DNA of 15,268 nucleotides from a virus (lineage: Duplodnaviria; Heunggongvirae; Uroviricota; Caudoviricetes), in the IMG/VR virus record IMGVR_UViG_3300022661_000054; one strand, given 5' to 3'. Shown piece after piece: positions 3,004 to 15,268 of the stretch (the stretch's first letter is position 1; every line of letters begins with the position of its first letter). The notes under the pieces were generated by a model. That model did no database searches, was not told the DNA's origin, and saw only the letters and a list, made by a program, of their open reading frames with translations. The translations under genes were made by a program, and so were the position numbers.

Positions 3004-3025
3004 AATAATTTATTAAATTAATAAT

Positions 3026-4324
3026 TTAATAGTCAGCTTCGGTCTTATCAGGTCGGAAGTCTTTGAAGATCGGGAATCTGAGACTCTCACCACCGTCTGC
3101 ATTTGTTGTGGACTCAAAGTACTGAACCTCACAGATGCTACCAAGATAGTCAGACTGATTATTCCAGATAGTTACTCGGAGGTCGTCAGAGAATCCAGAA
3201 CCAACTTTTACTACGTTACCGTTCTTATAGCGAACAAGGATTGCACCAAGAGTGTCGGCCAGTCTACCAGTACCTTCTTCAAAGCCGACGATTTCAAGGT
3301 CCATAGTCTGCATCTTCTTTACCTTAAGAAGACCATTAGTTCTCTTAAACTCATACGGCGCATCGCAGATGTTAATCATGATTCCCTCTTCACCGTTCGC
3401 AATTTCCTCATCTAAGATTTCAGTAATCTTAGAAGTGTCGGAACCGCGGTAAAGGATTGGCAAAAGTTCAAAGTATCTTGCGGTATCAAAAGCAGACATA
3501 CAGTCGAGCATCTGTCTCCGTTGAATATAGGTCATAGAAGAAGTCTGGGTCTTAAAGTCGGATACTGACATAGCATCGAAGACAAGCATCTTAATCCCGT
3601 GCTTTTCCTTATCCTTAGTACGGACAATCTTCATAGTTTCTTTATAAGCTTCTTTAGAAGAAAGATTTCCGCGAACTAAAAGAGTAATCTCACCGTCAAG
3701 ACAAGTGTTGTCAGGCATCAAGCGAGACATCTCATCTTCCAGGTCTACGAGACCCTCGTACTTCTGACCCGCTCTAGTAAAGAATGAGACTTGACCATTC
3801 TCCTTTAGAGCAATGATACGACCGCCATCTATCTTAGTAGTGATAGCAAATGACTTACCGTCCACATACTGAGGCTTGTCAAAGTACTTATTAGCCAACT
3901 GTACATTAAAAGTAGGAATCAGATCAGGGATTTCTTTATTAATGGTTTTAGAGTCACAACCGATAGAAAGGTCTTTACAGATAAGAGACTCGAGCAGCAC
4001 GCCACACTCACGATCAAAAGAACATACGCAGTTAAGGACTTCTTGACAAACACTGATATCACGATCGGTGCCTGTGTTATGCTCTTCTAAATACTCAAAA
4101 AACTCAAAGACAGACTCGATGGTCGTAACACCGCTAGCTCCTACTACCTTACTAAGTTTCTTAGTCGAAATACCGAAGACCTTATAAGGATCGAAAGCGA
4201 TCTGAAGATACTTACAGATGATAGAGTCATCAGCATACTTCTTAAGTACCGCCTGCTTATGTAATCTGCTATTAGACTCTGTGATTTCTTTTACAAAGTT
4301 ATTAAAATGTTGAAGTGTTTTCAT
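3026..4324 (-). CDS. lig: ATP-dependent DNA ligase (phage type), 432 aa
   Basis: Motif I TTKIDGGR (KxDG), motif III LDGEI, motif IV EGIMI, motif V LLKVK, OB-fold VGSGFSD and C-terminal SLRFP; SD TAAGGAG. Confidence 0.95.
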   Translation of the reverse strand: MKTLQHFNNFVKEITESNSRLHKQAVLKKYADDSIICKYLQIAFDPYKVFGISTKKLSKVVGASGVTTIESVFEFFEYLEEHNTGTDRDISVCQEVLNCVCSFDRECGVLLESLICKDLSIGCDSKTINKEIPDLIPTFNVQLANKYFDKPQYVDGKSFAITTKIDGGRIIALKENGQVSFFTRAGQKYEGLVDLEDEMSRLMPDNTCLDGEITLLVRGNLSSKEAYKETMKIVRTKDKEKHGIKMLVFDAMSVSDFKTQTSSMTYIQRRQMLDCMSAFDTARYFELLPILYRGSDTSKITEILDEEIANGEEGIMINICDAPYEFKRTNGLLKVKKMQTMDLEIVGFEEGTGRLADTLGAILVRYKNGNVVKVGSGFSDDLRVTIWNNQSDYLGSICEVQYFESTTNADGGESLRFPIFKDFRPDKTEADY

Positions 4325-4482: not shown

Positions 4483-4859
4483 TAGTAAATCTTCCTTCCG
4501 CCCTTATAGAAATTCCAGCAACCATTTTCCCAGATATAAGAATAATAGAAGCAGTTAAACAACCGTTTTTTGGTTTCATAAGTTGTTTGTTCTACGTCTC
4601 CCCAGTCTTCTCCTCGATCTCTATGATAGAAACAACACGTATCAAACTGAGGTTTATCAAAGCTATGAGGCAAGTCAGTTTCGAATTTCTCTGCAATATA
4701 GCTAGCATCTCCGGCATCAACGAGTTTTCTAGCCCACTCTTCTGAATTATAATTCTCAGTCAACATTGGCCACATATAATCAGGATAACCATCAGAATGA
4801 ACATAAATAGTTTCATATCCTTTTTCTGATTTAATAGCAATTCCACATTGTGTAGACAT
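4482..4859 (-). CDS. conserved-looking phage hypothetical protein, 125 aa (start moved to ATG 4859)
   Basis: AAGGAGGAAACTAAA-ATG; motifs IYVHSDGYP and FYHRDRGE resemble a widespread uncharacterised phage family (from memory). Confidence 0.85.
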   Translation of the reverse strand: MSTQCGIAIKSEKGYETIYVHSDGYPDYMWPMLTENYNSEEWARKLVDAGDASYIAEKFETDLPHSFDKPQFDTCCFYHRDRGEDWGDVEQTTYETKKRLFNCFYYSYIWENGCWNFYKGGRKIY

Positions 4860-4872
4860 TTTAGTTTCCTCC

Positions 4873-5049
4873 TTAATAAACCTTATCAGCGCCGTTATTA
4901 ATAAGCTGAGCAATATCTTTTTTCACCAAGTTCAATTGTTCGCAGTCATCAGTATCGAGGTCATGAAGTTCGACCTCAACATCTGTGATACCTTCAACAT
5001 AAACTTCCTGAACTAAACCATGTTCAACTACAATATGAATCTTCTTCAT
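4873..5049 (-). CDS. hypothetical protein, 58 aa (start moved to ATG 5049)
   Basis: AGGAGGTTACT-ATG; MKKIHIVVEHGLVQEVY... Confidence 0.85.
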   Translation of the reverse strand: MKKIHIVVEHGLVQEVYVEGITDVEVELHDLDTDDCEQLNLVKKDIAQLINNGADKVY

Positions 5050-5059
5050 AGTAACCTCC

Positions 5060-5344
5060 TTATAATAAACCAAGCTCTACAGCTTTATTTTCAATTAAAC
5101 GAATCTCAGACGCAGCGAGGTCAAACTTGTCACGATACTTCTTCCAACACACACCTACGTGACCAAGAAAGTCAGCGTCATAATCAGTGATAGGAGTATC
5201 ACCAAGACAGATACTAATCATATATTCGACCTTACCTTTATCGGTCATCAGATGGTCTACCAAACAGTCTTCGCACAGAACTTCGCCATAAGAAGTCGTA
5301 AAAAGAACCGTTACTACCTTTCCGCATTTTGCACAATGAGCCAT
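5060..5344 (-). CDS. CxxC-CxxC zinc-finger protein, 94 aa (start moved to ATG 5344); paralog of the C-terminal half of 5509..6192
   Basis: TTGGAGGAAATTGTT-ATG; CAKC...LCEDC. Confidence 0.85.
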   Translation of the reverse strand: MAHCAKCGKVVTVLFTTSYGEVLCEDCLVDHLMTDKGKVEYMISICLGDTPITDYDADFLGHVGVCWKKYRDKFDLAASEIRLIENKAVELGLL

Positions 5345-5404
5345 AACAATTTCCTCCAAAGTAATTATAATAAGCATGTAAGCCATTCATTAACTTACAT
5401 GCTT

Positions 5405-5433
5405 ATTATATCATATTTTATTTGATTTGTAAA
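5405..5433 (-). promoter_or_regulatory. sigmaA-type promoter, cassette P5 (operon ending in the ligase)
   Basis: TTTACA (5433-5428)-N17-TATAAT (5410-5405), TGA extension. Confidence 0.85.
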
Positions 5434-5458
5434 CTGACAAACCGCACAAAAATATAAA

Positions 5459-5488
5459 AATAAACTGCGTAAAATTACACAGTTTATT
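5459..5488 (-). terminator. probable terminator after 5509..6192
   Basis: aataaactg / cagtttatt with inner gtaa/ttac; T-run follows on the minus strand. Confidence 0.55.
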
Positions 5489-5508
5489 CATTAAGATTAT
5501 TCTATTGA

Positions 5509-6192
5509 TTATTTTGTATCATAAGGTTCTACATCAAGATTTAAACCGGCAGCTTTTACAGTAGTTTCTATAAAAGCGATTTCATCTGCAGTTTTGTTTA
5601 ATTTATCTTTAAATGTAATCCAACACTTTGCTATTTTTTGACGATCATCTTCGCTAAAAGCTTCGATTTTATACTCACCAGTAGCAAGGCTAATAACATA
5701 CTCAACTTGACCATTGAGCGTACGCATATATTTATCATTCCAGCAATCAGTGCAAAGAAGGCTACCATAAGCATTCTTACGTAAAACTACATTGGTTTTC
5801 TTGCACTCCGCACATTCTATATGGTTAAAATCATTAATAAACTTATAACAAGAATGTGTTAACACATGTGCACAAATAGCCATATTTAGATTTTTTTTAA
5901 ACATACGAATATCCTGAACAGTGACATCCTCTTCAAAAATAAAACTGCTATTTTGCTCTTGTATGTCCTTAATTTTTTGCTCAAAAGTTTTTATAAAAGC
6001 CAAATCAGCATCAAAACAGGCAAAATGCAATTTACCGCTACGAGTTGAAGATGTGCTAAAAACATAATGCATAATATCACTAAATGTCTCTAATGCTGCA
6101 GTCTTTGATCTACCTGCGTACTGACAAATCATCGCGGGCAAATTTTGGTTAAGTTCATTAAAATCGTATTCAGAGAAAACTATATAAAACAT
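5509..6192 (-). CDS. hypothetical protein, 227 aa, with C-terminal CxxC-CxxC zinc-finger domain
   Basis: CAEC...LCTDC; AAGGAG SD at a long (~12 nt) spacing, so the start is slightly uncertain. Confidence 0.85.
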   Translation of the reverse strand: MFYIVFSEYDFNELNQNLPAMICQYAGRSKTAALETFSDIMHYVFSTSSTRSGKLHFACFDADLAFIKTFEQKIKDIQEQNSSFIFEEDVTVQDIRMFKKNLNMAICAHVLTHSCYKFINDFNHIECAECKKTNVVLRKNAYGSLLCTDCWNDKYMRTLNGQVEYVISLATGEYKIEAFSEDDRQKIAKCWITFKDKLNKTADEIAFIETTVKAAGLNLDVEPYDTK

Positions 6193-6223
6193 AAACGAAG
6201 CAACTCCTTTTTAACTATAATCT

Positions 6224-6237
6224 AAATAATTTAGCAA
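6224..6237 (-). promoter_or_regulatory. class II motif TTGCTAAATTATTT (putative phage-specific promoter)
   Basis: Identical 14-mer at 10435-10448; 9-mer core at 13227-13235; all intergenic, same orientation, 35-55 nt upstream of a start codon. Confidence 0.55.
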
Positions 6238-6270
6238 ATAAAAAGTAGTTTACAATCACTAGCATAAAAC

Positions 6271-6966
6271 TTAAAATGTTACATCATTAGAAACACCTGT
6301 GCACACCTTCTGTTCAACCGCCGCTCGGAAAGGTGCTGTTGCTCTGCTAGCTAATTTATTAATAGCCCAAGTAGCATCACGATAACTGCTAGCTGTCGCA
6401 ATCTCAATAATCTTAAGACGAGTATTTTTATCCGCAGTATATTCAGTAACTGTTTTCTCAAAGAGCTGGACTACTGCTTTGGTGAATCTACAGTTCGCAG
6501 CATCGATCATACCCTCTACCCAACGCTCATAAGCCGCACGAACCTCAGGGTCAGTTTCTAGAATCGCCTTCTTCATAGTAATCTTCATGCCGGCGATCTT
6601 TGCGGCCTTCTCATCTTTCTTCATTGCAGAAGTCTTCTTGAGTTTAGTAGTGTCTTCCTCAGCGATCACCGCGACCATTCCGTTTACTGCAATAGCAATT
6701 CTATTAGGATTTTCCATGTCCTTCAGCATAACACCGAGAGTCATCAGTTTATCATCACACTTAAGTTGCTTAGCAAGAGTTAACGTAGTTTCCCGCTCGA
6801 TGTAATCTCGATCCAAGCTAAAGAATCCATGTTCATCAGCAGTCTGTTTCTTCACTACTTGCTTAAGGATACTCTGAAGTTCTGCCCAGTAAGCTGCAAC
6901 CTCAAAGCCCGCAATCTTAACTAGTTTCTTATTTAAACGTAATTCATCAAATAAATCTAGATACAT
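6271..6966 (-). CDS. putative winged-helix DNA-binding protein (replisome-organiser-like N-terminus), 231 aa
   Basis: GGAGG SD; GFF-x-L-x5-ERETTL-x4-Q-x6-L-x2-LGV resembles wHTH N-termini of phage replication proteins; basic helical C-terminus. Confidence 0.6.
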   Translation of the reverse strand: MYLDLFDELRLNKKLVKIAGFEVAAYWAELQSILKQVVKKQTADEHGFFSLDRDYIERETTLTLAKQLKCDDKLMTLGVMLKDMENPNRIAIAVNGMVAVIAEEDTTKLKKTSAMKKDEKAAKIAGMKITMKKAILETDPEVRAAYERWVEGMIDAANCRFTKAVVQLFEKTVTEYTADKNTRLKIIEIATASSYRDATWAINKLASRATAPFRAAVEQKVCTGVSNDVTF

Positions 6967-7008
6967 ATAAATCCTCCAAATATATAATCTATTATATAAT
7001 ACAATAAA

Positions 7009-7036
7009 AAAGAGACCGGTTTTAGACGGTCTCTTT
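7009..7036 (-). terminator. strong intrinsic terminator after 7041..7901
   Basis: aaagagaccg / cggtctcttt 10-bp stem, 8-nt loop, U-tract on the minus strand. Confidence 0.85.
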
Positions 7037-7040
7037 ATTT

Positions 7041-7901
7041 TTAATATTCATAAGAAGTTCTGAGTTCAGTAAGCATGTGCCGCAAGTAACGATACAGCTT
7101 CTGATTATTGGCTCTATCAATTACATCAAGAATTGCAGTCAGTTTATCTTCTGAAATACTATAGCGGTCCATAAAGTAGTTCTTATATGTAGCAGGTAAC
7201 TTGCTAACAATCTGAATAAGCTTATATGGCCAGAACTCGCTACTATACTCAGTATATTTCGTAAGCTCTCCGTCGGCATTCTGTGCTTTTACAGTTTTCT
7301 TGAAATGCTTTTGTACATCATTGAATGCAATATTGTCAAGCAAGATTGCTTCAATAATTTTATTACGGTTAATATAACTCTGGATAAGCATCACAGCATC
7401 ATCGTCGATGTAACACTCATCTATACACTCGTCAGACTCAAGTACATCTCCGATAGTCTTACCAGCTTCGTCTTCGCCGCCCAAAGGAGTTTCAAGACTA
7501 TAACAGTGATTTACTGCTTTATGCTTATCAAGACGAAGGTCATAGTACTTCTGAAGCTTGATAGTCTCAATACACTTGTTAATGCACTGCTGAGCATTAA
7601 GCTTCTTATCAGGGTCTCTCCAGCCTCTATACTTGCAAGCATACTCGATTGCTTCATAGAGCCACCAGAAGAAATCCTCATGCTCAAGACTAGGTGCTAC
7701 AGTGTTAGATTTATACATCTTATCGATAGTATACCAGAAGCGAAGAATCAGAGCAGAGATGTAAATATCTTTCAATGCTTTGTTATCACTATCGACTGCA
7801 TCACAGTAAGCATCAGCGAGCTCATCAATAGAATAATACTCATAAGGCTTTACAAGTTTGCGAGCCAAAAAGGTCAGATCTCTCTTAGTCTCTCTCAACA
7901 T
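7041..7901 (-). CDS. divergent sigma70-family (SigK/SigE-like) sigma factor candidate, 286 aa (start moved to ATG 7901)
   Basis: Region 2-like LILRFWYTIDKMY...EHEDF...LYEAIEYA...NKCIE; region 3.2-like YSLETPLGGEDEAGKTIGDVLES; region 4.2-like end KLYRYLRHMLTELR; SD TTGGAGGAAATACTA-ATG. Confidence 0.6.
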   Translation of the reverse strand: MLRETKRDLTFLARKLVKPYEYYSIDELADAYCDAVDSDNKALKDIYISALILRFWYTIDKMYKSNTVAPSLEHEDFFWWLYEAIEYACKYRGWRDPDKKLNAQQCINKCIETIKLQKYYDLRLDKHKAVNHCYSLETPLGGEDEAGKTIGDVLESDECIDECYIDDDAVMLIQSYINRNKIIEAILLDNIAFNDVQKHFKKTVKAQNADGELTKYTEYSSEFWPYKLIQIVSKLPATYKNYFMDRYSISEDKLTAILDVIDRANNQKLYRYLRHMLTELRTSYEY

Positions 7902-7936
7902 TAGTATTTCCTCCAAAAAATCTTTAGTATAGTCAT

Positions 7937-7965
7937 ATTATAGCATATTTTGTCAGATTTGTAAA
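7937..7965 (-). promoter_or_regulatory. sigmaA-type promoter, cassette P6 (drives the sigma-like gene)
   Basis: TTTACA (7965-7960)-N17-TATAAT (7942-7937), TGC extension; -35 embedded in an imperfect inverted repeat 7957-7990. Confidence 0.85.
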
Positions 7966-7992
7966 CCCATAAATTGGTTTATTTACAAATTA

Positions 7993-8724
7993 TTAGTAAT
8001 TACTTTTATAGTAAATAAAGTCTTCATCATTACAATCAAGCTTATACCCGCTGTCAGAGCGGTCTGCGATTCTGATAAATGCTTCAAATAAACTGTTAAG
8101 AGCTTTAATTTCAGAAACGTCTACATTTCCGTCACCGTCACAGTGAAGCATCTTAAAGTCAAGATAATACAAATCATCTTCATATTTATTATTAAACTCT
8201 TCAACAGACTTTTGCATTTCGATAACCTCAAATTTAAGATTAGAAAGTCTGTCACAATAATCACGCAGCTCATCACAAAGCTTATCAAAAGACTGAACCA
8301 ACTTAGTAAAACGTACGAGCTCTTCACGATTAGCTTTTACAGAACCATAATTCTCACGGCACCATTCTTTATAATCTTCGTAAGTATCAGAATCAAGGAC
8401 AGACTCAGGAAGCATATGACCGTTGTAATCAGCATCTTTTAAAATAAGATAACCATTAGAACGACCGTTAAAGTATACTTCATAACCAGGATGGCATCTT
8501 CTCCAGTCATCAATCATATAACTAATAGTATCATATTCGCCGTTCTCAAGCAAGCTTAAGGCCGTCCAGCAATTACCGGACAATTCAAGATTATGTACCT
8601 TAACATTATTCGCAATAGAATACAAGCGATTCCAAGAACTCATCGTAGGATATTCAAAATGATTTTTTAAAAAATTAAACATTTGCTTATCGTTAGTAAT
8701 GTCAATTCCGCTTTTGTAAAACAT
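7993..8724 (-). CDS. hypothetical protein, 243 aa (start moved to ATG 8724)
   Basis: TTGGAGGAAATGAAT-ATG; contains FNGRSNGYLIL, similar to an uncharacterised motif in Firmicute mobile elements (from memory). Confidence 0.85.
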   Translation of the reverse strand: MFYKSGIDITNDKQMFNFLKNHFEYPTMSSWNRLYSIANNVKVHNLELSGNCWTALSLLENGEYDTISYMIDDWRRCHPGYEVYFNGRSNGYLILKDADYNGHMLPESVLDSDTYEDYKEWCRENYGSVKANREELVRFTKLVQSFDKLCDELRDYCDRLSNLKFEVIEMQKSVEEFNNKYEDDLYYLDFKMLHCDGDGNVDVSEIKALNSLFEAFIRIADRSDSGYKLDCNDEDFIYYKSNY

Positions 8725-8765
8725 ATTCATTTCCTCCAAAATATGTACTCATAAATTACGATAAT

Positions 8766-8794
8766 ATTATAACATACTTTTCTTGATTTGTAAA
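8766..8794 (-). promoter_or_regulatory. sigmaA-type promoter, cassette P7
   Basis: TTTACA (8794-8789)-N17-TATAAT (8771-8766), TGT extension. Confidence 0.85.
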
Positions 8795-8837
8795 CCCCTT
8801 TTTTGAAAAAAATTATATTTTAATTTTCTTTTTATTT

Positions 8838-9482
8838 TTAATAAACAAATTCACAATGATAGTAGTTGCCATCTTCGTATAATACTTTAGAAATAATCTT
8901 AAAAGCAAGAATCGTCGGTTCATCTTCATCAATAAAACGAAACTTAACATAATCATTTTTATTAAAGTCCGTTAAGAGCTTGCAGCTGATCTTAAGATTA
9001 CCATCACCGAGAAGTTCATAATCGTGCTCTATGATATCAACGATAGGATCCGGGTCTTCGACTTCATCGAGGCATGCTTCAAGGCAATCCTCAGAACCAT
9101 ACTCACCGTCAATCCAAAGGTCTCTCTTATAGATAGTACCGATATTCATTGTGCCATCGTCCTCGTCTTCAATAACAGTTTCTACTTCAATAGAAATATA
9201 TTCTACTTTAGAAGCAGGGTCAGTGCAGTTATCTTCTTCCGCTGCCTGATGAATAATGTCAGCGAGTGTAAGTTGCTTAGCACACTCAACAGCTGCATCA
9301 GGATCAGAAAACTCACTAATCAGCATTTCAGAATCAGTCGGCGCACCGTTAGAATCATAACCGAGAGTCCATACTTCATAGGATACTTCGGTGTCCTCAG
9401 GGATGTCGGTAATATCTTCTGCAATGTACTGAACCAAGTCTTCGTCGTTGATAAGGTCTCTGATATTTTTAATCTCTTTCAT
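8838..9482 (-). CDS. very acidic hypothetical protein, 214 aa
   Basis: GGAGG SD; about 57 D/E vs 14 K/R (hand count). Confidence 0.9.
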   Translation of the reverse strand: MKEIKNIRDLINDEDLVQYIAEDITDIPEDTEVSYEVWTLGYDSNGAPTDSEMLISEFSDPDAAVECAKQLTLADIIHQAAEEDNCTDPASKVEYISIEVETVIEDEDDGTMNIGTIYKRDLWIDGEYGSEDCLEACLDEVEDPDPIVDIIEHDYELLGDGNLKISCKLLTDFNKNDYVKFRFIDEDEPTILAFKIISKVLYEDGNYYHCEFVY

Positions 9483-9512
9483 TATTTTTTCCTCCGTAAA
9501 TTTTATGTTTAT

Positions 9513-9541
9513 ATTATAACATGTTTAAACGAGTTTGTAAA
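9513..9541 (-). promoter_or_regulatory. sigmaA-type promoter, cassette P8
   Basis: TTTACA (9541-9536)-N17-TATAAT (9518-9513), TGT extension. Confidence 0.85.
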
Positions 9542-9562
9542 CTGACAAAATGCACAGAATTT

Positions 9563-9787
9563 TTACATTTTCTGAATGTCCTTATCAATTACATCGACCC
9601 AGCCTTTAAGGATAGACTCCGTATGGAGAAAGGTTCTGAATTCAGGTTTATACTGAGGAAGCTCTTGAATCAAGATTCTATCATCACGGTCTTCAAGTAC
9701 GACCATAGGATTCTGCGGTTCATTAGGATTAAGCCATTCTTTTTTAATTTGTACTAACCATCCGCCCCAATTTTCTGTTTTATTCAT
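9563..9787 (-). CDS. hypothetical protein, 74 aa
   Basis: GAAGGAAGG upstream; sole gene between P9 and P8. Confidence 0.8.
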   Translation of the reverse strand: MNKTENWGGWLVQIKKEWLNPNEPQNPMVVLEDRDDRILIQELPQYKPEFRTFLHTESILKGWVDVIDKDIQKM

Positions 9788-9862
9788 TTTATGTACCTTC
9801 CTTCATTATTTAAATAAACGCGCATGCCGTGCGTACACACGTATTATTTATTTTGTAAATAT

Positions 9863-9891
9863 ATTATAACATATAAATACATATTTGTAAA
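9863..9891 (-). promoter_or_regulatory. sigmaA-type promoter, cassette P9
   Basis: TTTACA (9891-9886)-N17-TATAAT (9868-9863), TGT extension. Confidence 0.85.
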
Positions 9892-9950
9892 TAGGCAAAG
9901 CGCACAAATTTTAAAAATATTTTTATGCGATTTATATAAAATAAAAATAA

Positions 9951-10008
9951 CGTTTATAATTATAAACGAAACCTTATAGTTTGTTAGTAATTATAAACGT
10001 TATAAACA
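9951..10008. repeat. cluster of four TTATAAACR 9-mers including a perfect 18-bp palindrome
   Basis: cgtttataattataaacg (9951-9968); ttataaacg (9991-9999); ttataaaca (10000-10008). Confidence 0.8.
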
Positions 10009-10021
10009 TTATGTATTTAAA

Positions 10022-10387
10022 TTAGATAACTGCGTATCCAGTGCCTGACATACGAGAATTCCAAACGAAGAACAATATATTCTCACCGATCTTAGCAGGA
10101 ATCTTAGCATCACCTTTAGTCATTCTAAAAACATCATTACGAAGTTTTTTAGCACCGGTGGTTACTAAATTCTTCTCTTGCATAACTGCATCGATAATAG
10201 ACATAATCTGAGTTGCATTGCCAGTCATACACGCAGTCTCAAAATCTGGATGCTGTGCTACGTTCGTAGCAAGCAGACTCTGATCGGGTGCCTCAGTAAG
10301 AGAAACTCCCTCAGTAAGATAGTTACCTGTAGTAAGTTCTTCACGAAGCATTTCGCGAAGCATCGCTCTTAATTCACTTTTCTTCAT
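10022..10387 (-). CDS. hypothetical protein, 121 aa, possibly head-packaged
   Basis: MKKSELRAMLREMLREEL N-terminus and repeated LxE motifs; AGAGG SD. Confidence 0.85.
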   Translation of the reverse strand: MKKSELRAMLREMLREELTTGNYLTEGVSLTEAPDQSLLATNVAQHPDFETACMTGNATQIMSIIDAVMQEKNLVTTGAKKLRNDVFRMTKGDAKIPAKIGENILFFVWNSRMSGTGYAVI

Positions 10388-10434
10388 AATTATTAAATAC
10401 CTCTTTTAATTTATATTAATTATTGCGTTTCCGC

Positions 10435-10448
10435 AAATAATTTAGCAA
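10435..10448 (-). promoter_or_regulatory. class II motif TTGCTAAATTATTT
   Basis: Identical to 6224-6237; followed on the minus strand by a TTGCG-GAAA-CGCAA hairpin (10436-10423). Confidence 0.55.
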
Positions 10449-10940
10449 TTAATAATTTAATAATTTAACACTTCCAGTACAAGCAGTTTCCTTTAAATCT
10501 ATAACTCTCTGGTTTGAGGAGCCTCGGTATTTAAGCCGTAGATCCTTCTGCTCTTCTATGAATCGACCGTCTACTATCACATCTATTGCAGAGTTTAAAA
10601 GGTCTTCTGCTACGTCTTCGAATTCATAGCCGGTCCAAATCCAGACAGTCTTAGTTGGATACTTCTCCTTAAACTCTCTAGCAAGTTGGAGTACCTCAGA
10701 TCGATTCTGAGGATGTAGTGGTTCACCTCCTAAGATGCTTAGTCCGCTAATATGTGCCGGTTCTGCTAAAGAAAAAATAGCATCTTTAGTTTGTTTAGTA
10801 AACTTACTGCCACCTTTAAAATCTTTCGCAACTCCATTAAAACATCCAGGACAGTTAAAGTCGCAGCCCTGGACGAAGAGAGATACTCTGCATCCAGGTC
10901 CGTTTGCTATATCAAGTTGTTTAATAATATTATAGTTCAT
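10449..10940 (-). CDS. nrdG: anaerobic ribonucleotide reductase activating enzyme (radical SAM)
   Basis: GPGCRVSLFVQGC-x3-C-x2-CFN, GLSILGGEPL, WIWTGY, RGSSNQR; directly abuts nrdD (TAA-ATG). Confidence 0.97.
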   Translation of the reverse strand: MNYNIIKQLDIANGPGCRVSLFVQGCDFNCPGCFNGVAKDFKGGSKFTKQTKDAIFSLAEPAHISGLSILGGEPLHPQNRSEVLQLAREFKEKYPTKTVWIWTGYEFEDVAEDLLNSAIDVIVDGRFIEEQKDLRLKYRGSSNQRVIDLKETACTGSVKLLNY

Positions 10941-13172
10941 TTAGCACCCACAGTCATGACAGTCTAAGTGTACATAGCGGTCTAGGATTTCTTGGGTTCT
11001 ACCCTGGTTCCAATACTGACTACCTATGTATCCACAAGTTCTTCTAGCGACATTCATCTTAGACTGATCAGTGTTACCGCAGTTAGGGCACTTCCAGATT
11101 AACTTACCTGACTCATCTTCTTCAATAAGGATTTCACGATCCCAGCCGCACACATGACAGTAGTCTGACTTAGTGTTTAACTCAGCGTACATGATGTTAT
11201 CATAGATATACTGAATTACCGTAAGTACTGCTTCTAGATTGTTTTCTAAGTTAGCACTTTCGATGTAACTGATCGCGCCGCCTGATGAGAGCTTCTGGAA
11301 CTTACTTTCTACCTTTAGTTTCTCGAAAGGATCAATGCACTTCTCTACATGGATATGATAGCTGTTAGTGATATAGTTCTTATCGGTAACCCCAGGGATT
11401 TCACCGAATCTCTTCTGAAGACACTTAGCAAACTTGTAAGTTGTGCTTTCTAGCGGCGTACCATAGATACCGAAGCCTAGGTAAAGCTCTTCATTCCACT
11501 CATCACACTTTTTATTCATGTAACGCATGATCTCTAGTCCGAGTTCCTGACCTTCTTCAGTAAGAAGATCCTTACCAATCAATTCTACTACACACTCCCA
11601 AAGTCCAGCATAGCCTAGGCTGATAGTAGAGTAACCGCCAGTGAGTAGCTTATCGATAGTCTCACCTTTCTTTAGTCTAGCAATTGCGCCATGCTGCCAA
11701 AGGATCGGAGCTACATCACTGATAGTGCCCTTTAGTCGATCATAACGACAGAGAAGAGCGCGGTGACACAACTCGAGTACTTCATCGAAGTTCTTCCAGA
11801 AGCTTGCTAGATCCTTAGCATAATTATCTCCTGCTGCAGCACATGCTACATCTACTAGATTAACAGTAACAACACCTTTGTTAAAGCGGCCATACCATTT
11901 CTGCTTACCATCTTCATCATACCAAGGAGAAAGACAGGATCTACATCCCATAGGTGCGAAGCAACCACCTTCTTTTAGTTCCTTCATGATCTTCTCACTA
12001 ATATAATCTGGAACTAAACGCTTAGCACTGCACTTTGCCGCAAGCTTAGTTAAGTACCAGTAGTCAGAATCTGGATATACATTATCTTCTTCTAGAACAT
12101 AGATTAGTTTAGGGAATGCTGGCGTGATCCAAACACCCTTCTCATTCTTGATTCCTTCGTATCTTTGGAGAAGCACTTCTTCGATGATCATTGCTAGGTC
12201 CTTTCTAGTCTGTTCATCTTCCACTTCATTAAGATACATAAATACAGTAATGAAAGGCGCTTGACCGTTAGTAGTCATGAGAGTATTAACCTGGTACTGA
12301 ATAGTTTGCACGCCTCTCTTAACCTCGAGTCGAACTCTCTGTTCTGTAATTTCATCAATTAGCTTTTCTAAGTCTTCACTAACTGGAACTGGCTCACCAT
12401 AATGTAGGGCTGCAGCTTTCTTCTGTTCTTCTACTACTTCTGCTTTGATCTTCTGTCTACTTACATCTACGAAAGGTGCAAGATGTGAGAGCGTGATACT
12501 CTGACCACCATACTGACTACTAGCAACTTGCGCTACGATCTGCGTAGCTACATTACACGCAGTGGAGAAACTGTGCGGTCTTTCAATCAGGGTACCGGAA
12601 ATGACGGTTCCGTTCTGCAGCATGTCTTCTAGATTAACTAAGTCACAGTTATGGATACGCTGCGCAAAGTAATCCATGTCATGGAAGTGAATAGTTCCTT
12701 CATCATGAGCTTTGACTATATCCTTAGGAAGTATTAGCCTACGTGTAAGATCTTTACTGACCTCACCTGCCATGTAGTCGCGCTGCGTAGATGAAATAGT
12801 CGGATTCTTATTAGAGTTCTCTTGTTTAAGTTCTTCGTTACTTAAGTTGATCAAGCTTAAGATCGATTCATCAGTAGTATTAGAATTTCTAACTAATTCT
12901 TTATTGTACCTATATTGTATAAAGGCACGAACGAGATTGTTGTAGTTTCGGTAGATAAGTTCATCTTCGATTAAGTCGTTAATGTCCTCTACCTTAATAG
13001 CTCTTTTATATTCAGAGCATTTCTCTTCTACGATATTTGCAAGCTGATTAATCTTACGTGGACCAATCTGCTTTGACTTAATGATTTCTTTGTTCGCACA
13101 TGAAATCGCTTTGACAATCTTAGATTTATCAAACTCGACTTCACGCCCATCACGTTTAATAACTCTTTGCAT
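10941..13172 (-). CDS. nrdD: class III (anaerobic) ribonucleoside-triphosphate reductase, 743 aa
   Basis: N-terminal ATP cone (VIKRDGREVEFDKSKI), IHFHD, HNCDLVN, PMGCRS, Zn site CHVC...CPNC, glycyl-radical RRTCGYIG. Confidence 0.98.
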   Translation of the reverse strand: MQRVIKRDGREVEFDKSKIVKAISCANKEIIKSKQIGPRKINQLANIVEEKCSEYKRAIKVEDINDLIEDELIYRNYNNLVRAFIQYRYNKELVRNSNTTDESILSLINLSNEELKQENSNKNPTISSTQRDYMAGEVSKDLTRRLILPKDIVKAHDEGTIHFHDMDYFAQRIHNCDLVNLEDMLQNGTVISGTLIERPHSFSTACNVATQIVAQVASSQYGGQSITLSHLAPFVDVSRQKIKAEVVEEQKKAAALHYGEPVPVSEDLEKLIDEITEQRVRLEVKRGVQTIQYQVNTLMTTNGQAPFITVFMYLNEVEDEQTRKDLAMIIEEVLLQRYEGIKNEKGVWITPAFPKLIYVLEEDNVYPDSDYWYLTKLAAKCSAKRLVPDYISEKIMKELKEGGCFAPMGCRSCLSPWYDEDGKQKWYGRFNKGVVTVNLVDVACAAAGDNYAKDLASFWKNFDEVLELCHRALLCRYDRLKGTISDVAPILWQHGAIARLKKGETIDKLLTGGYSTISLGYAGLWECVVELIGKDLLTEEGQELGLEIMRYMNKKCDEWNEELYLGFGIYGTPLESTTYKFAKCLQKRFGEIPGVTDKNYITNSYHIHVEKCIDPFEKLKVESKFQKLSSGGAISYIESANLENNLEAVLTVIQYIYDNIMYAELNTKSDYCHVCGWDREILIEEDESGKLIWKCPNCGNTDQSKMNVARRTCGYIGSQYWNQGRTQEILDRYVHLDCHDCGC

Positions 13173-13226
13173 AGTTAGCGCCTTTCTATTAAATTTTTAT
13201 AGTCAAAGAGTAGATACTCTCGTATT

Positions 13227-13238
13227 TAATTTAGCCAA
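13227..13238 (-). promoter_or_regulatory. class II motif TTGGCTAAATTA upstream of nrdD
   Basis: Exact GCTAAATTA core; followed on the minus strand by the mini-hairpin agagt-agat-actct (13207-13220). Confidence 0.5.
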
Positions 13239-13274
13239 TTTTAAGAGCTTTTTATAGGCCTAAAAATAGGGAAA

Positions 13275-13300
13275 GGACGGTAGATTTTACTCCACCGTCC
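13275..13300 (-). terminator. GC-rich hairpin; probable terminator after 13355..13576
   Basis: Minus strand GGACGGTGG-AGTAAAAT-CTACCGTCC followed by TTTCCCTATTTTT. Confidence 0.65.
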
Positions 13301-13354
13301 CGATGCCAATGGCCTATTCACCCGCACTACCAACATAATATAATACGGTATTTA

Positions 13355-13576
13355 TTAGCCTATTTTCTTATAAAAGGAGAAATAAATTCCAATGCCGTCC
13401 ATGTATAAATAATATTTTTCGGAATTATTTGTTTCAGAAACTACAAACTTTTTGTATTTCATATCTGTCAGATAAAGTGCACCAACTGGCTTACCGTCAA
13501 TATTAAGTAATTCGATAATAGGAGGATTATCAAGTTCGGCGTAGGTCTTAAATAAAGTAGTTAGTGAGTGATCCAT
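13355..13576 (-). CDS. hypothetical protein, 73 aa
   Basis: AGGAAGGA upstream; adjacent to 13580..13981. Confidence 0.75.
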   Translation of the reverse strand: MDHSLTTLFKTYAELDNPPIIELLNIDGKPVGALYLTDMKYKKFVVSETNNSEKYYLYMDGIGIYFSFYKKIG

Positions 13577-13579
13577 AAG

Positions 13580-13981
13580 CTAATCCTTCCTGTGATCCCA
13601 AAGATCTTGGTCAAGCCTCTGACCGAACAGTAACGGATCCAGAAACTTCCCGTAATAAAAAGCGTATGCTTCAAATTCATAGAACATATGTGCTAGAATA
13701 TTATACTCTTCCTCATAAAATGAAATTGCGTTTTTTAGTAGACTGCAACTTAACAATTTCACAAATTGTGCTTCACCGGTAGGTATTTCTTTACAATAGT
13801 TTTTTAAGGTTGTTTTATAAGAAGACTTTAGACTCTTTACTACAGATTCTACAGCTCTCATACTTTTACCTACTGTAAAATAGTCTCGCCAAGTACGTAT
13901 AAATTTAAATTGCACGTGCTCACCAGCATCAGCTCTTTCTAATAAGACATTTAATAATTGTTTTTGTTCTGGGTTGTTCAA
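13580..13981 (-). CDS. hypothetical protein, 133 aa (TTG start, TAG stop)
   Basis: AGGTAAAGGA upstream of TTG; fills the interval. Confidence 0.75.
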   Translation of the reverse strand: MNNPEQKQLLNVLLERADAGEHVQFKFIRTWRDYFTVGKSMRAVESVVKSLKSSYKTTLKNYCKEIPTGEAQFVKLLSCSLLKNAISFYEEEYNILAHMFYEFEAYAFYYGKFLDPLLFGQRLDQDLWDHRKD

Positions 13982-14011
13982 AGTATCTATCCTTTACCTA
14001 ATAAAAATAAT

Positions 14012-14043
14012 AGCACCTTGGCTGGAGGAATAACCAAGGTGCT
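14012..14043 (-). terminator. 10-bp perfect hairpin with U-rich tail; loop carries CCUCC
   Basis: agcaccttgg / ccaaggtgct, then ATTATTTTT on the minus strand. Confidence 0.75.
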
Positions 14044-14084
14044 CAAAGGAGGAAACATCTATAAGATTCAACATCCTATGTTTT

Positions 14085-14114
14085 ATTATACGATAAAAAA
14101 TCTAAATTTTTAAA
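14085..14114 (-). promoter_or_regulatory. possible weaker sigmaA promoter
   Basis: TTTAAA (14114-14109)-N18-TATAAT (14090-14085); not a member of the cassette family. Confidence 0.35.
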
Positions 14115-14142
14115 GTTGTCTCAGTAAGTTTTTTATATTGGT

Positions 14143-14709
14143 TTACCATCTAAGCATATGATCAAAGATGTCCGCAATTAACGAATAGTCAATAGTAGAC
14201 TTATTAGTAGTTGCGTTGCTGCTAATAGTGGTTTCGAAGTCACCATCCTTAAGAGTAAGGTGATATCCTTCAGGATATTTATCGGTGAATTCCTTCAAAG
14301 CAGTCGAGTAAGCTTCTTCAGCTGCAGCTAATGTATCCTGTACTTCCTTCTTAGCATCTTCAAAGTTTTTCTTAAGGGCTGCAAGATGCTCACTGTATTC
14401 ATGTGTAACTGCAGTAAGATCTTCTTTATAAGACTTACGTGCAGCATTAAGAGCTTTGAAAGCATCTTCTACTTTAAGAGCATCAGACTTCTTCTGTGCA
14501 GCCGCATCTTCTTTTGCCTTGAGCTTAGCGTAGTAAGCTTCCTCAGCCTCCTTAAGCTCTCCGATAGTTTCGAAAGGTTCTTTAAGTACTTTAGAGTAAT
14601 AGATGTAATCGCGCTCTTCTTTTCTAGGGGCCTTTACATTACTCTTAATCCCATCGGTATTACCGATGTCAACCTTTTTGTTAGTTTCAGTATTTTTATA
14701 ATTTTTCAT
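14143..14709 (-). CDS. coiled-coil hypothetical protein, 188 aa
   Basis: Long K/E/A-rich helical stretch ending in F-x3-Y-x-x-GYH; AAAGGA upstream. Confidence 0.85.
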   Translation of the reverse strand: MKNYKNTETNKKVDIGNTDGIKSNVKAPRKEERDYIYYSKVLKEPFETIGELKEAEEAYYAKLKAKEDAAAQKKSDALKVEDAFKALNAARKSYKEDLTAVTHEYSEHLAALKKNFEDAKKEVQDTLAAAEEAYSTALKEFTDKYPEGYHLTLKDGDFETTISSNATTNKSTIDYSLIADIFDHMLRW

Positions 14710-14784
14710 TTTAAATTAACCATCCTTTTAGTTTTTATTTCGTATATTAAAAGTCCTCTCAATTAATATACAATTTATTAAAAT

Positions 14785-14816
14785 GAATTAGCTAACCTGA
14801 GACTCATTAGTTATTC
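14785..14816 (-). terminator. imperfect hairpin; possible terminator after 14822..
   Basis: gaattagctaa...tgag-a-ctca...ttagttattc; ATTTT follows on the minus strand. Confidence 0.45.
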
Positions 14817-14821
14817 AATTT

Positions 14822-15268
14822 TTATAATTCAAATCCACAATTAATGCAGAAACCAGTTTCTGGGTCAAAAGAATTAGAACCGCATTCTGGACATAGTGAT
14901 AAACGCTTTTTGTAATCTTCTGACTCCTCAAGCTCTTCTAGTTTAGAAACAGGCTTAATAGATTCGTCATATCTATCATCAGCATGGCGGTCTGCAATAT
15001 AGTCGTCATAACCATCTTGCCAATATTCCTCATATGAAGTATTGCTTTCATAAGCCTCTGCTGCGCTATCTCTATAGATTTCAAGTAATTGATCATAATA
15101 CTTATCTAATAGAATGTCAAAATGATCTTTTAAAAAGGCATGCAAAGCGTCTTCATCTTCTAGTGTATTAAGTCCACCTGGAACATCTAAAACATCTTCT
15201 TCGGTTATGAGGTCATGTTCCCACATGTCTACTGCAACATCATATTTTGAAACGGTATATGTATAGTG
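14822..15268 (-). CDS. acidic protein with C-terminal zinc ribbon, 5'-truncated by the window edge
   Basis: Frame stays open for 14 codons upstream of the track's ATG 15226 (HYTYTVSKYDVAVD-M) with no SD; ends CPECGSNSFDPETGFCINCGFEL. Confidence 0.85.
   Translation of the reverse strand, partial: HYTYTVSKYDVAVDMWEHDLITEEDVLDVPGGLNTLEDEDALHAFLKDHFDILLDKYYDQLLEIYRDSAAEAYESNTSYEEYWQDGYDDYIADRHADDRYDESIKPVSKLEELEESEDYKKRLSLCPECGSNSFDPETGFCINCGFEL

Follow-up and report, generated by a model that had tools for sequence, protein, structure and literature searches.

Does the gene at positions 7041..7901 (minus strand) of a 15,268-nucleotide stretch of DNA from an uncultured tailed phage (IMG/VR record IMGVR_UViG_3300022661_000054; hereafter the window, itself part of a 27.5-kb IMG/VR fragment estimated to be 13% complete) encode a phage sigma factor, and which promoters would such a factor read? 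An earlier note, made from the letters of the window, had taken the 286-residue product, here termed P0001, for a highly divergent relative of Bacillus subtilis SigK and SigE, produced early by the host polymerase and acting as the hub of a cascade that redirects transcription to promoters carrying GCTAAATTA. The analyses presented here indicate, with good probability, that P0001 is a real, very divergent sigma factor that heads a conserved promoter programme of three tiers. They do not bear out a particular kinship with SigK and SigE and, because a further class of phage promoter (TATTGTATWAT) was also found, the reading of GCTAAATTA by P0001 becomes one of two live options.

P0001 is predicted to carry the fold of sigma domain 2

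The case for a sigma factor is carried by structure. We modelled P0001 with AlphaFold2 using an alignment of 111 family members (A1), which gave a mean predicted local distance difference test score (pLDDT) of 93.9 and a predicted template modelling score of 0.63. The model comprises sigma domain 2 including a region-1.2-like N-terminal helix (residues 1-131; 7509..7901, minus strand), an acidic linker resembling region 3.2 (residues 132-157; 7431..7508, minus strand; pLDDT 68-88 in the less confident stretch 132-165), and a helix-turn-helix (HTH)-type C-terminal domain in the position where sigma domain 4 would be (residues 158-286; 7044..7430, minus strand). A sigma domain 3 is absent. The sigma domain 2 helical bundle (regions 1.2 and 2.1-2.4), which the earlier note had expected a predicted structure to contain, is thus retained in the model.

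Comparison of the model with solved structures using VIA-align returned 134 chains at Z >= 5, and the top 50 rows were sigma factors without exception. The best matches were to Escherichia coli sigma70 (6ca0_F, residues 97-446) and sigmaS (5ipl_F, residues 57-162), both with Z 9.2 and a root-mean-square deviation (rmsd) of 2.8 Å over 105-106 residues, in which the N-terminal 122 residues of P0001 superpose on regions 1.2 and 2.1-2.4. Region 1.2 is a feature of sigma groups 1-3, and we assign the N-terminal helix to it because the sigma70 alignment starts at residue 97. Next in rank were pro-sigmaK (8vjl_B; Z 8.7, 3.0 Å, 101 residues), SigH (8.6) and SigA and SigB (both 8.5), followed at lower scores by SigI, sigma32, extracytoplasmic function (ECF) sigmas, T4 gp55 (7d7d_F; Z 6.2, 118 residues) and AR9 gp226 (Z 4.7). 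Full-length alignments to sigmaS, SigA, SigB and sigma32 place 180-204 residues in order.

Other structure-based and embedding-based searches pointed the same way. Foldseek comparison of the full model with the PDB returned almost only sigma factors, with E-values that are weak because the inter-domain geometry differs, and a Foldseek shape search of the ESM Atlas gave two SigS-family rows only, at template modelling scores of 0.30-0.45. Sigma70_r2 is carried by 57 of the 100 nearest language-model neighbours of P0001. A weak hhalign match between the linker stretch and region 3.2 of RpoS also counts in favour of a sigma factor. In addition, the polar residues N123, K126 and N130, which lie along the long helix equivalent to regions 2.4/3.0, are kept in 71-87% of family members.

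These matches do not single out the sporulation sigmas. Pro-sigmaK ties with sigma70, sigmaS, SigH, SigA and SigB at Z 8.5-9.2, all within 1 Z of each other, and no NCBIfam family is matched; the consensus promoters of SigK and SigE are, moreover, unlike either of the candidate phage boxes described below. The motif-by-motif correspondence to SigK on which the earlier note had built was not significant as sequence in library and profile searches, although the order of the regions that it proposed fits both the fold and the predicted beta' contacts. No evidence bears on its further suggestion that P0001 interferes with host sporulation.

The C-terminal domain departs most from known sigma factors. 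When folded alone it reaches pLDDT 95, and it contains a beta-hairpin (residues 197-223; 7233..7313, minus strand; DSSP strands 197-207 and 213-223) that accounts for the long insertion previously suspected in region 4. In VIA-align, winged-helix proteins (Z up to 5.4) tie with the sigma4 domains of CnrH, HrdB, SigH, SigL, SigD, SigF, SigR and SigW (Z 4.2-4.8, rmsd 2.5-3.0 Å over 57-70 residues), and Foldseek on this domain alone returned only noise.

At the level of sequence the protein escapes detection. P0001 has no match in Pfam at E <= 10, and so falls outside the sequence definition of Sigma70_r2 and Sigma70_r4 that had been proposed as a check; a hidden Markov model (HMM) search of the PDB with the A1 profile found nothing, and among the 111 A1 members Pfam recorded just two weak Sigma70_r3 matches (best E 0.0029). 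Genome-level scans with Sigma70_r2 and r4 do not pick up the gene, tblastn of P0001 against 50,697 phage records gave no match, and single-protein scans of IMG/VR for more distant relatives gave none or one locus. The family is nevertheless large: a word-indexed search found 1283 close homologues at E <= 1e-3, mostly unnamed or labelled hypothetical, and an exhaustive search resolved 400 clusters at 50% identity. Together with the fold matches, these labels back the view that a protein of the sigma70 family has been passing as hypothetical. On the consistent fold evidence, P0001 may be placed in the sigma70 superfamily by its predicted domain 2 structure, as a highly divergent member that fails every sequence-profile definition.

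Predicted docking on the RNA polymerase core

We then co-folded residues 1-135 of P0001, with their alignment, and residues 200-340 of B. subtilis beta' (RPOC_BACSU), which cover the clamp helices. The interface score (ipSAE) was 0.75, compared with 0.00 for the best control; the mark used for this score is reached by 58 of 80 solved complexes and by 2 of 110 mismatched pairs. The runs agreed in at least 91% of contacts, and the partner was modelled at pLDDT >= 84. In the predicted interface, beta' residues 256-287 pack against P0001 helices 2-13, 41-54 and 74-91, which correspond to regions 1.2, 2.1 and 2.2 by fold alignment, with clamp-helix contacts at P0001 residues 4-12, 41-49 and 70-86. 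In silico, P0001 is thus predicted to bind core RNA polymerase through the beta' clamp helices, as the earlier note had anticipated.

A single early sigma-like gene per genome

The gene runs from an ATG at 7901 to a stop codon at 7041-7043, and the signals around it were read correctly from the outset. Upstream lie a host sigmaA-type early promoter of the form TTTACA-N17-TGnTATAAT (7937..7965, minus strand) and a Shine-Dalgarno sequence, GGAGG (7910..7914, minus strand), placed 8 nt 5' of the ATG. Downstream, an intrinsic terminator (7009..7036, minus strand; a 10-bp stem with 5 GC pairs followed by a T-run) ends the transcription unit. Because its own promoter and terminator flank it, the gene is a monocistron in the window, and the host-type promoter is in line with early production by the host polymerase. 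The same promoter is kept upstream of the homologue in most close relatives; in five others (L004, L005, L006, L013 and L015) the homologue lacks a consensus promoter of its own and sits after an upstream early gene. A 199-codon open reading frame (ORF; 7305-7904, plus strand) runs antisense to most of the gene, and the antisense ORF in the relative G002, at 311 codons, exceeds the gene itself. These antisense frames are probably by-products of codon bias; the minus-strand frame is supported, since the family alignment and the pLDDT-94 model both back P0001.

To place the gene in complete genomes we used two near-complete relatives whose homologues are 73-74% identical to P0001, namely G001 (220 kb) and G002 (a 233-kb contig), and the more distant G004 (147 kb, 45% identical), G006 (221 kb, 36%), G007 (237 kb, 34%) and G003 (161 kb, 27%). 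The whole sequences of G002 and of the four more distant relatives were analysed. Among five large relatives with homologues 27-74% identical, three are 91-100% complete. Exactly one family member is found per genome in seven relatives. Neither a Pfam scan nor the family HMM yielded another accepted Sigma70_r2/r4 gene in G001 and G002, and when 56 conserved protein families were screened with hhalign, the P0001 family alone was sigma-like. One candidate for a second sigma, a 140-codon ORF at 3017-3439 of G002 (L030 1360-1782), gave a weak Sigma70_r2 match (E 0.0076, 14 bits); with no such Sigma70_r2 match in G001, no PHROG match and no language-model neighbour, it was rejected as probably a chance hit. 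The proposal of a hub is supported in that the P0001 homologue is the only sigma-like gene found in the complete relatives.

No genes for multisubunit RNA polymerase (beta or beta') were found in G001-G003; the corresponding search for a T7-type enzyme was uninformative, its control being silent. When the early blocks of G002 and G003 are compared, no more than three conserved ORFs remain: the sigma-like gene, the gene directly downstream of it and one that matches weakly. The sigma-like protein is thus the sole candidate for a conserved early regulator, and this in phages that rely on the host polymerase and share two non-canonical promoter classes.

Three promoter classes

The promoter classes emerged from an unbiased analysis of k-mers enriched upstream of ORFs in the genomes of the relatives. 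In every genome this analysis recovered the Shine-Dalgarno sequence, with AAGGAG-type words the most enriched genome-wide, together with three promoter-like classes. Class 1, TTTACA-N17-TGnTATAAT, is limited to one block of 20-30 kb, and the sigma gene always lies inside this block.

Class 2, which the earlier note had missed, has the form TATTGTATWATAT (TATTGTATWAT), or aGGTGTATAATAAA (aGGTGTATAAT) in G003, the most distant relative. It often lies directly 3' of terminator T-runs, and it heads the genes for DnaC, DnaB, primase, clamp, clamp loader, resolvase and SbcD. The next gene downstream of the sigma gene is headed by this class too, both in the window, where the box TATTGTATTATATAAT (6990..7006, minus strand) immediately follows the P0001 terminator, and in G002, where the box is found at the equivalent site (position 98101). 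In G002 (L018-L029) there are 35 coding-strand copies of TATTGTAT. Class 2 contains a perfect TATAAT, with its TG one position too close relative to the canonical TGn.

Class 3 consists of (T)GCTAAATTA followed 2-3 nt on by T(G/A)(A/G). Read in register it is TG-C-TAAATT, an extended -10 with canonical TGn spacing in which T-12, A-11 and T-7 are kept. The window contains three exact copies of GCTAAATTA compared with 0.5 expected, all on the minus strand: upstream of a gene for a 227-residue Zn-finger protein (6227..6235), upstream of the gene at 10022-10387 (10438..10446) and upstream of nrdD (13227..13235). In G002 (218 kb of unique sequence) the 8-nt core GCTAAATT occurs 48 times, 43 of them on the coding strand; 35 copies fall within the intergenic 9% of the genome (P ~2e-26), with a median distance of about 40 nt to the start codon that follows. 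In five genomes with homologues of no more than 27-45% identity, this core again ranks first among upstream words. Class 3 is the sole class in the virion module, where it precedes the genes for head protease, tail sheath and minor tail proteins, and it is also found ahead of homing endonuclease genes and nrdD (nrdDG).

A conserved -35 element is lacking from both class 2 and class 3. Class 2 equals class 3 in conservation, being present in all five genomes examined, and every genome or locus examined either has both classes or comprises the early region only, so that co-occurrence with the sigma gene does not separate them. The single-box element GCTAAATTA proposed at the outset is thus real and conserved and the cascade idea finds partial support, with the assignment of P0001 to that element now shared with a competing option.

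Weighing the possible readings

Based on these results, we propose that P0001 would be transcribed right after infection by host sigmaA-RNA polymerase from TTTACA-N17-TGnTATAAT. Its N-terminal domain (regions 1.2-2.4) would dock on the beta' clamp helices of the host core, its acidic region-3.2-like linker would thread towards the active site, and its C-terminal HTH domain, with the inserted beta-hairpin, would stand in for domain 4. The resulting holoenzyme would initiate at phage promoters of the extended -10 type that lack a -35 and, of the two such classes, GCTAAATTA, which heads every virion module, nrdDG and the homing endonucleases, may be the slightly likelier target. We regard it as probable that P0001 is a functional sigma factor. 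For the full statement, that it is an early sigma reading the class 3 promoters, we infer both specificity and timing, and we would put its chances a little short of even. Class 3 is favoured because of parsimony (one sigma and one clearly non-sigmaA box), because its single box is of the gp55 type and because class 2 keeps the sigmaA hexamer.

Several observations count against this proposal, some at the level of the sigma assignment and others at that of its target. P0001 has no usable match in Pfam, NCBIfam, PHROGs or PDB sequences, and the sole match between the A1 profile and four E. coli sigmas in hhalign (P0001 128-160 to RpoS 214-244, the region 3.2 'SxDxPxGxD...' stretch) is a weak one over 31 columns, with a probability of 12% and P 0.0025. 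By the calibration of the VIA tool, helical bundles can give Z values below ~13, so that a score near 9 is modest for a domain of this kind, and the C-terminal domain is indistinguishable from generic winged-helix folds. Solved sigma/beta' complexes exist, so that the co-fold result may reflect likeness and not binding by this particular copy, and the beta' fragment came from B. subtilis and not from the host of the phage. As to the target, nothing ties P0001 to GCTAAATTA over the equally conserved class 2 box, and sequence alone cannot decide between them. By the precedent of SPO1 gp28, an early-made sigma would be expected to drive the next class, that of the replication genes, which here is class 2. 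It is also conceivable that TGCTAAATT is near enough to an extended -10 for host sigmaA to read it. Finally, a search of sequencing runs listed no RNA run containing the gene.

The alternative that survives best, although we consider it unlikely, is that P0001 reads class 2 (TATTGTATWAT) and so activates replication or middle genes, with GCTAAATTA left to an unseen middle product or to a modified sigmaA holoenzyme. Besides its conservation in all five genomes, class 2 heads the replication genes and the gene directly downstream of the sigma gene, and P0001 and this neighbour are two of the three early-region ORFs conserved between G002 and G003. The displaced TG means that sigmaA alone should read the box poorly, which calls for a phage early factor, and by the logic of a cascade such as that of SPO1 gp28 an early sigma normally drives the next class. 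There is a precedent in phiEco32 gp36, a phage sigma made early, which acts at both middle and late genes through one box, AATGTA, centred near -11.5 (PMC12276001). This box resembles the class 2 core ATTGTA; gp36 (with gp79) is, however, absent from the listed structural matches of P0001, no sequence relationship between the two was sought or detected, and the hosts and phage types differ. Moreover, reading class 2 would require a second, late factor, and Pfam r2/r4, the family HMM and the hhalign screen of 56 families all failed to reveal one, whereas the perfect TATAAT leaves room for host sigmaA to serve class 2 with or without an activator.

A further alternative, which we think improbable, is that one P0001 sigma serves classes 2 and 3, with a co-factor, replication or promoter strength deciding the timing. 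Each genome has a single sigma-like gene, both boxes lack a -35 and consist of TG followed by a T/A-rich hexamer (sharing TG..AAT when aligned on TG), and gp36 of phiEco32 again provides a model in its use at middle and late genes (PMC12276001). Each class is, however, stereotyped at 9-13 near-invariant positions, several of which differ between the two, and this argues for two readers.

It is similarly improbable that P0001 is a sigma-shaped polymerase binder without promoter specificity, acting as a competitor that displaces sigmaA in host shut-off or as an accessory subunit. Core docking alone is predicted by the co-fold, helix 103-131 shows no obvious counterpart of the aromatic residues that sigma70 typically has in region 2.3, and the C-terminal domain matches sigma4 and winged-helix proteins equally well. 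On the other hand, the architecture of sigma2, region-3.2-like linker and HTH is kept across 400 clusters, the polar N123, K126 and N130 are conserved on the long 2.4/3.0-like helix, and two non-sigmaA promoter classes need a reader. The idea that P0001 is no host polymerase factor at all, being instead a two-domain DNA-binding regulator or replication protein with a chance sigma2 likeness, or the specificity subunit of an unseen phage polymerase, could draw on the low Z values that helical bundles can yield, on weak DnaB_2 or MCM winged-helix matches in a few family members and on AR9 gp226 at Z 4.7, but is very improbable given a match list made up of sigma factors with the topology in the right order, language-model neighbours that lead independently to Sigma70_r2, a co-fold that is specific (0.75 versus 0.00) and the lack of beta or beta' genes in G001-G003.

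Comparison with known sigma factors

With group 1 and 2 sigmas, P0001 shares its predicted docking by helices equivalent to regions 2.1/2.2, and it may also share with them its region-3.2-like acidic linker. It differs from them in having no Pfam-level similarity and no sigma3, in candidate promoters that lack a -35 and in a C-terminal domain (129 residues) that is twice the size of sigma4 and bears a beta-hairpin. The layout of sigma2, linker and HTH without sigma3 is shared with ECF (group 4) sigmas, whose sigma2 and sigma4 domains are among the matches; ECF sigmas, however, lack the region 1.2 helix that is present in P0001, the C-terminal domain of P0001 is much larger, and there is no evident anti-sigma partner.

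T4 gp55 is likewise a phage sigma beyond the reach of ordinary profiles, and it shares a sigma2-type fold with P0001. The T4 late promoter TATAAATA is a single -10-like box that has TAAAT in common with GCTAAATTA. Whereas gp55 has no C-terminal domain and needs gp33 at the beta flap, P0001 combines linker and HTH in one chain and has an early promoter. Thus P0001 is not of the gp55 type, that is, sigma2 only with a separate co-activator: its C-terminal domain is fused, and the Z for gp55 is below those for the cellular sigmas. Like T4, this phage encodes its own clamp and clamp loaders; in G002 a sliding clamp and three clamp-loader-like proteins (15998-17182 and 22697-26090; L018/L019) have class 2 promoters. 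These proteins would matter if late transcription were coupled to replication as in T4.

In the phages studied here one sigma-like gene and single-box promoters are seen, whereas SPO1 makes two or three proteins of the sigma type and has promoters with two boxes. The logic is shared with the SPO1 cascade of gp28 and gp33-gp34: early promoters read by sigmaA, a phage sigma encoded by the early genes and then the next promoter class. A switch from sigmaA to phage sigmas in SPO1 has been described (PMC13401047).

Genomic context and host

The larger ORFs of the window all lie on the minus strand and include an ATP-dependent DNA ligase recognised by Pfam; from our own reading of their sequences, two others are taken to be nrdD and nrdG. 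The conserved downstream neighbour of P0001 (6271..6966, minus strand) encodes 231 residues and is syntenic with the sigma gene even where the homologue is 27% identical. Its product has no Pfam or PHROGs match, and its language-model neighbours carry HTH_36, Phage_rep_O, RepA_N and DnaD_N, a lead by which it could possibly be a replication initiator or organiser.

The ends of the G002 contig overlap by about 10 kb at only 95.8% identity (4846-14836 at the head and 223344-233329 at the tail). The genome behind this contig may be circular or terminally redundant, two strain variants having been joined in the assembly; its unique length is ~218-223 kb. At 9536-13920 of G002 (L018) a gene that is one 817-residue ORF in G003 is split into three pieces, and a GIY-YIG/HNH homing endonuclease with its own GCTAAATTA box lies between pieces two and three.

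The P0001 gene was found in DNA runs from animal faeces and bovine gut metagenomes, and the nearest cultured relative of the phage terminase is only 34% identical. Three contigs with gene copies 70-86% identical (L098-L100) are binned in metagenome-assembled genomes labelled Bacteroidales. Mis-binning of phage contigs is the probable explanation: the strong ribosome sites of AAGGAG type and the TTTACA/TGnTATAAT promoters are out of keeping with Bacteroidales and argue for a Firmicute-like host.

A literature search for the motif string returned unrelated papers only.

Implications for gut jumbo phages

Jumbo phages without a polymerase of their own ('group 2') were found in a survey to encode sigma factors (PMC7824862). 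Phage sigma factors are textbook switches, but few families of them have been characterised, and the annotation of uncultured phages misses divergent ones. In its widest form, our proposal is that P0001 represents an unrecognised and very abundant phage sigma family in which a group-1-like sigma2 that includes region 1.2 is followed, without any sigma3, by an HTH domain of a novel kind bearing a hairpin, and which would read -35-less TGC-TAAATT-A promoters unaided as the master switch of a three-tier programme across a clade of uncultured 150-240-kb animal-gut phages. We hold this broader view tentatively, as possible though somewhat doubtful in its entirety. If it is true, one chain would do what T4 splits between gp55 and gp33. 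P0001 would then be a natural test case for how a sigma operates when its promoters offer just one extended -10-like box and its own domain 4 has been remodelled, and P0001 and its promoter may constitute a compact orthogonal sigma/promoter pair for Firmicute-type polymerases. Recognition of the family would also supply a transcription map for this clade of gut jumbo phages, with a sigmaA-type early block, replication genes under TATTGTATWAT and virion genes under GCTAAATTA.

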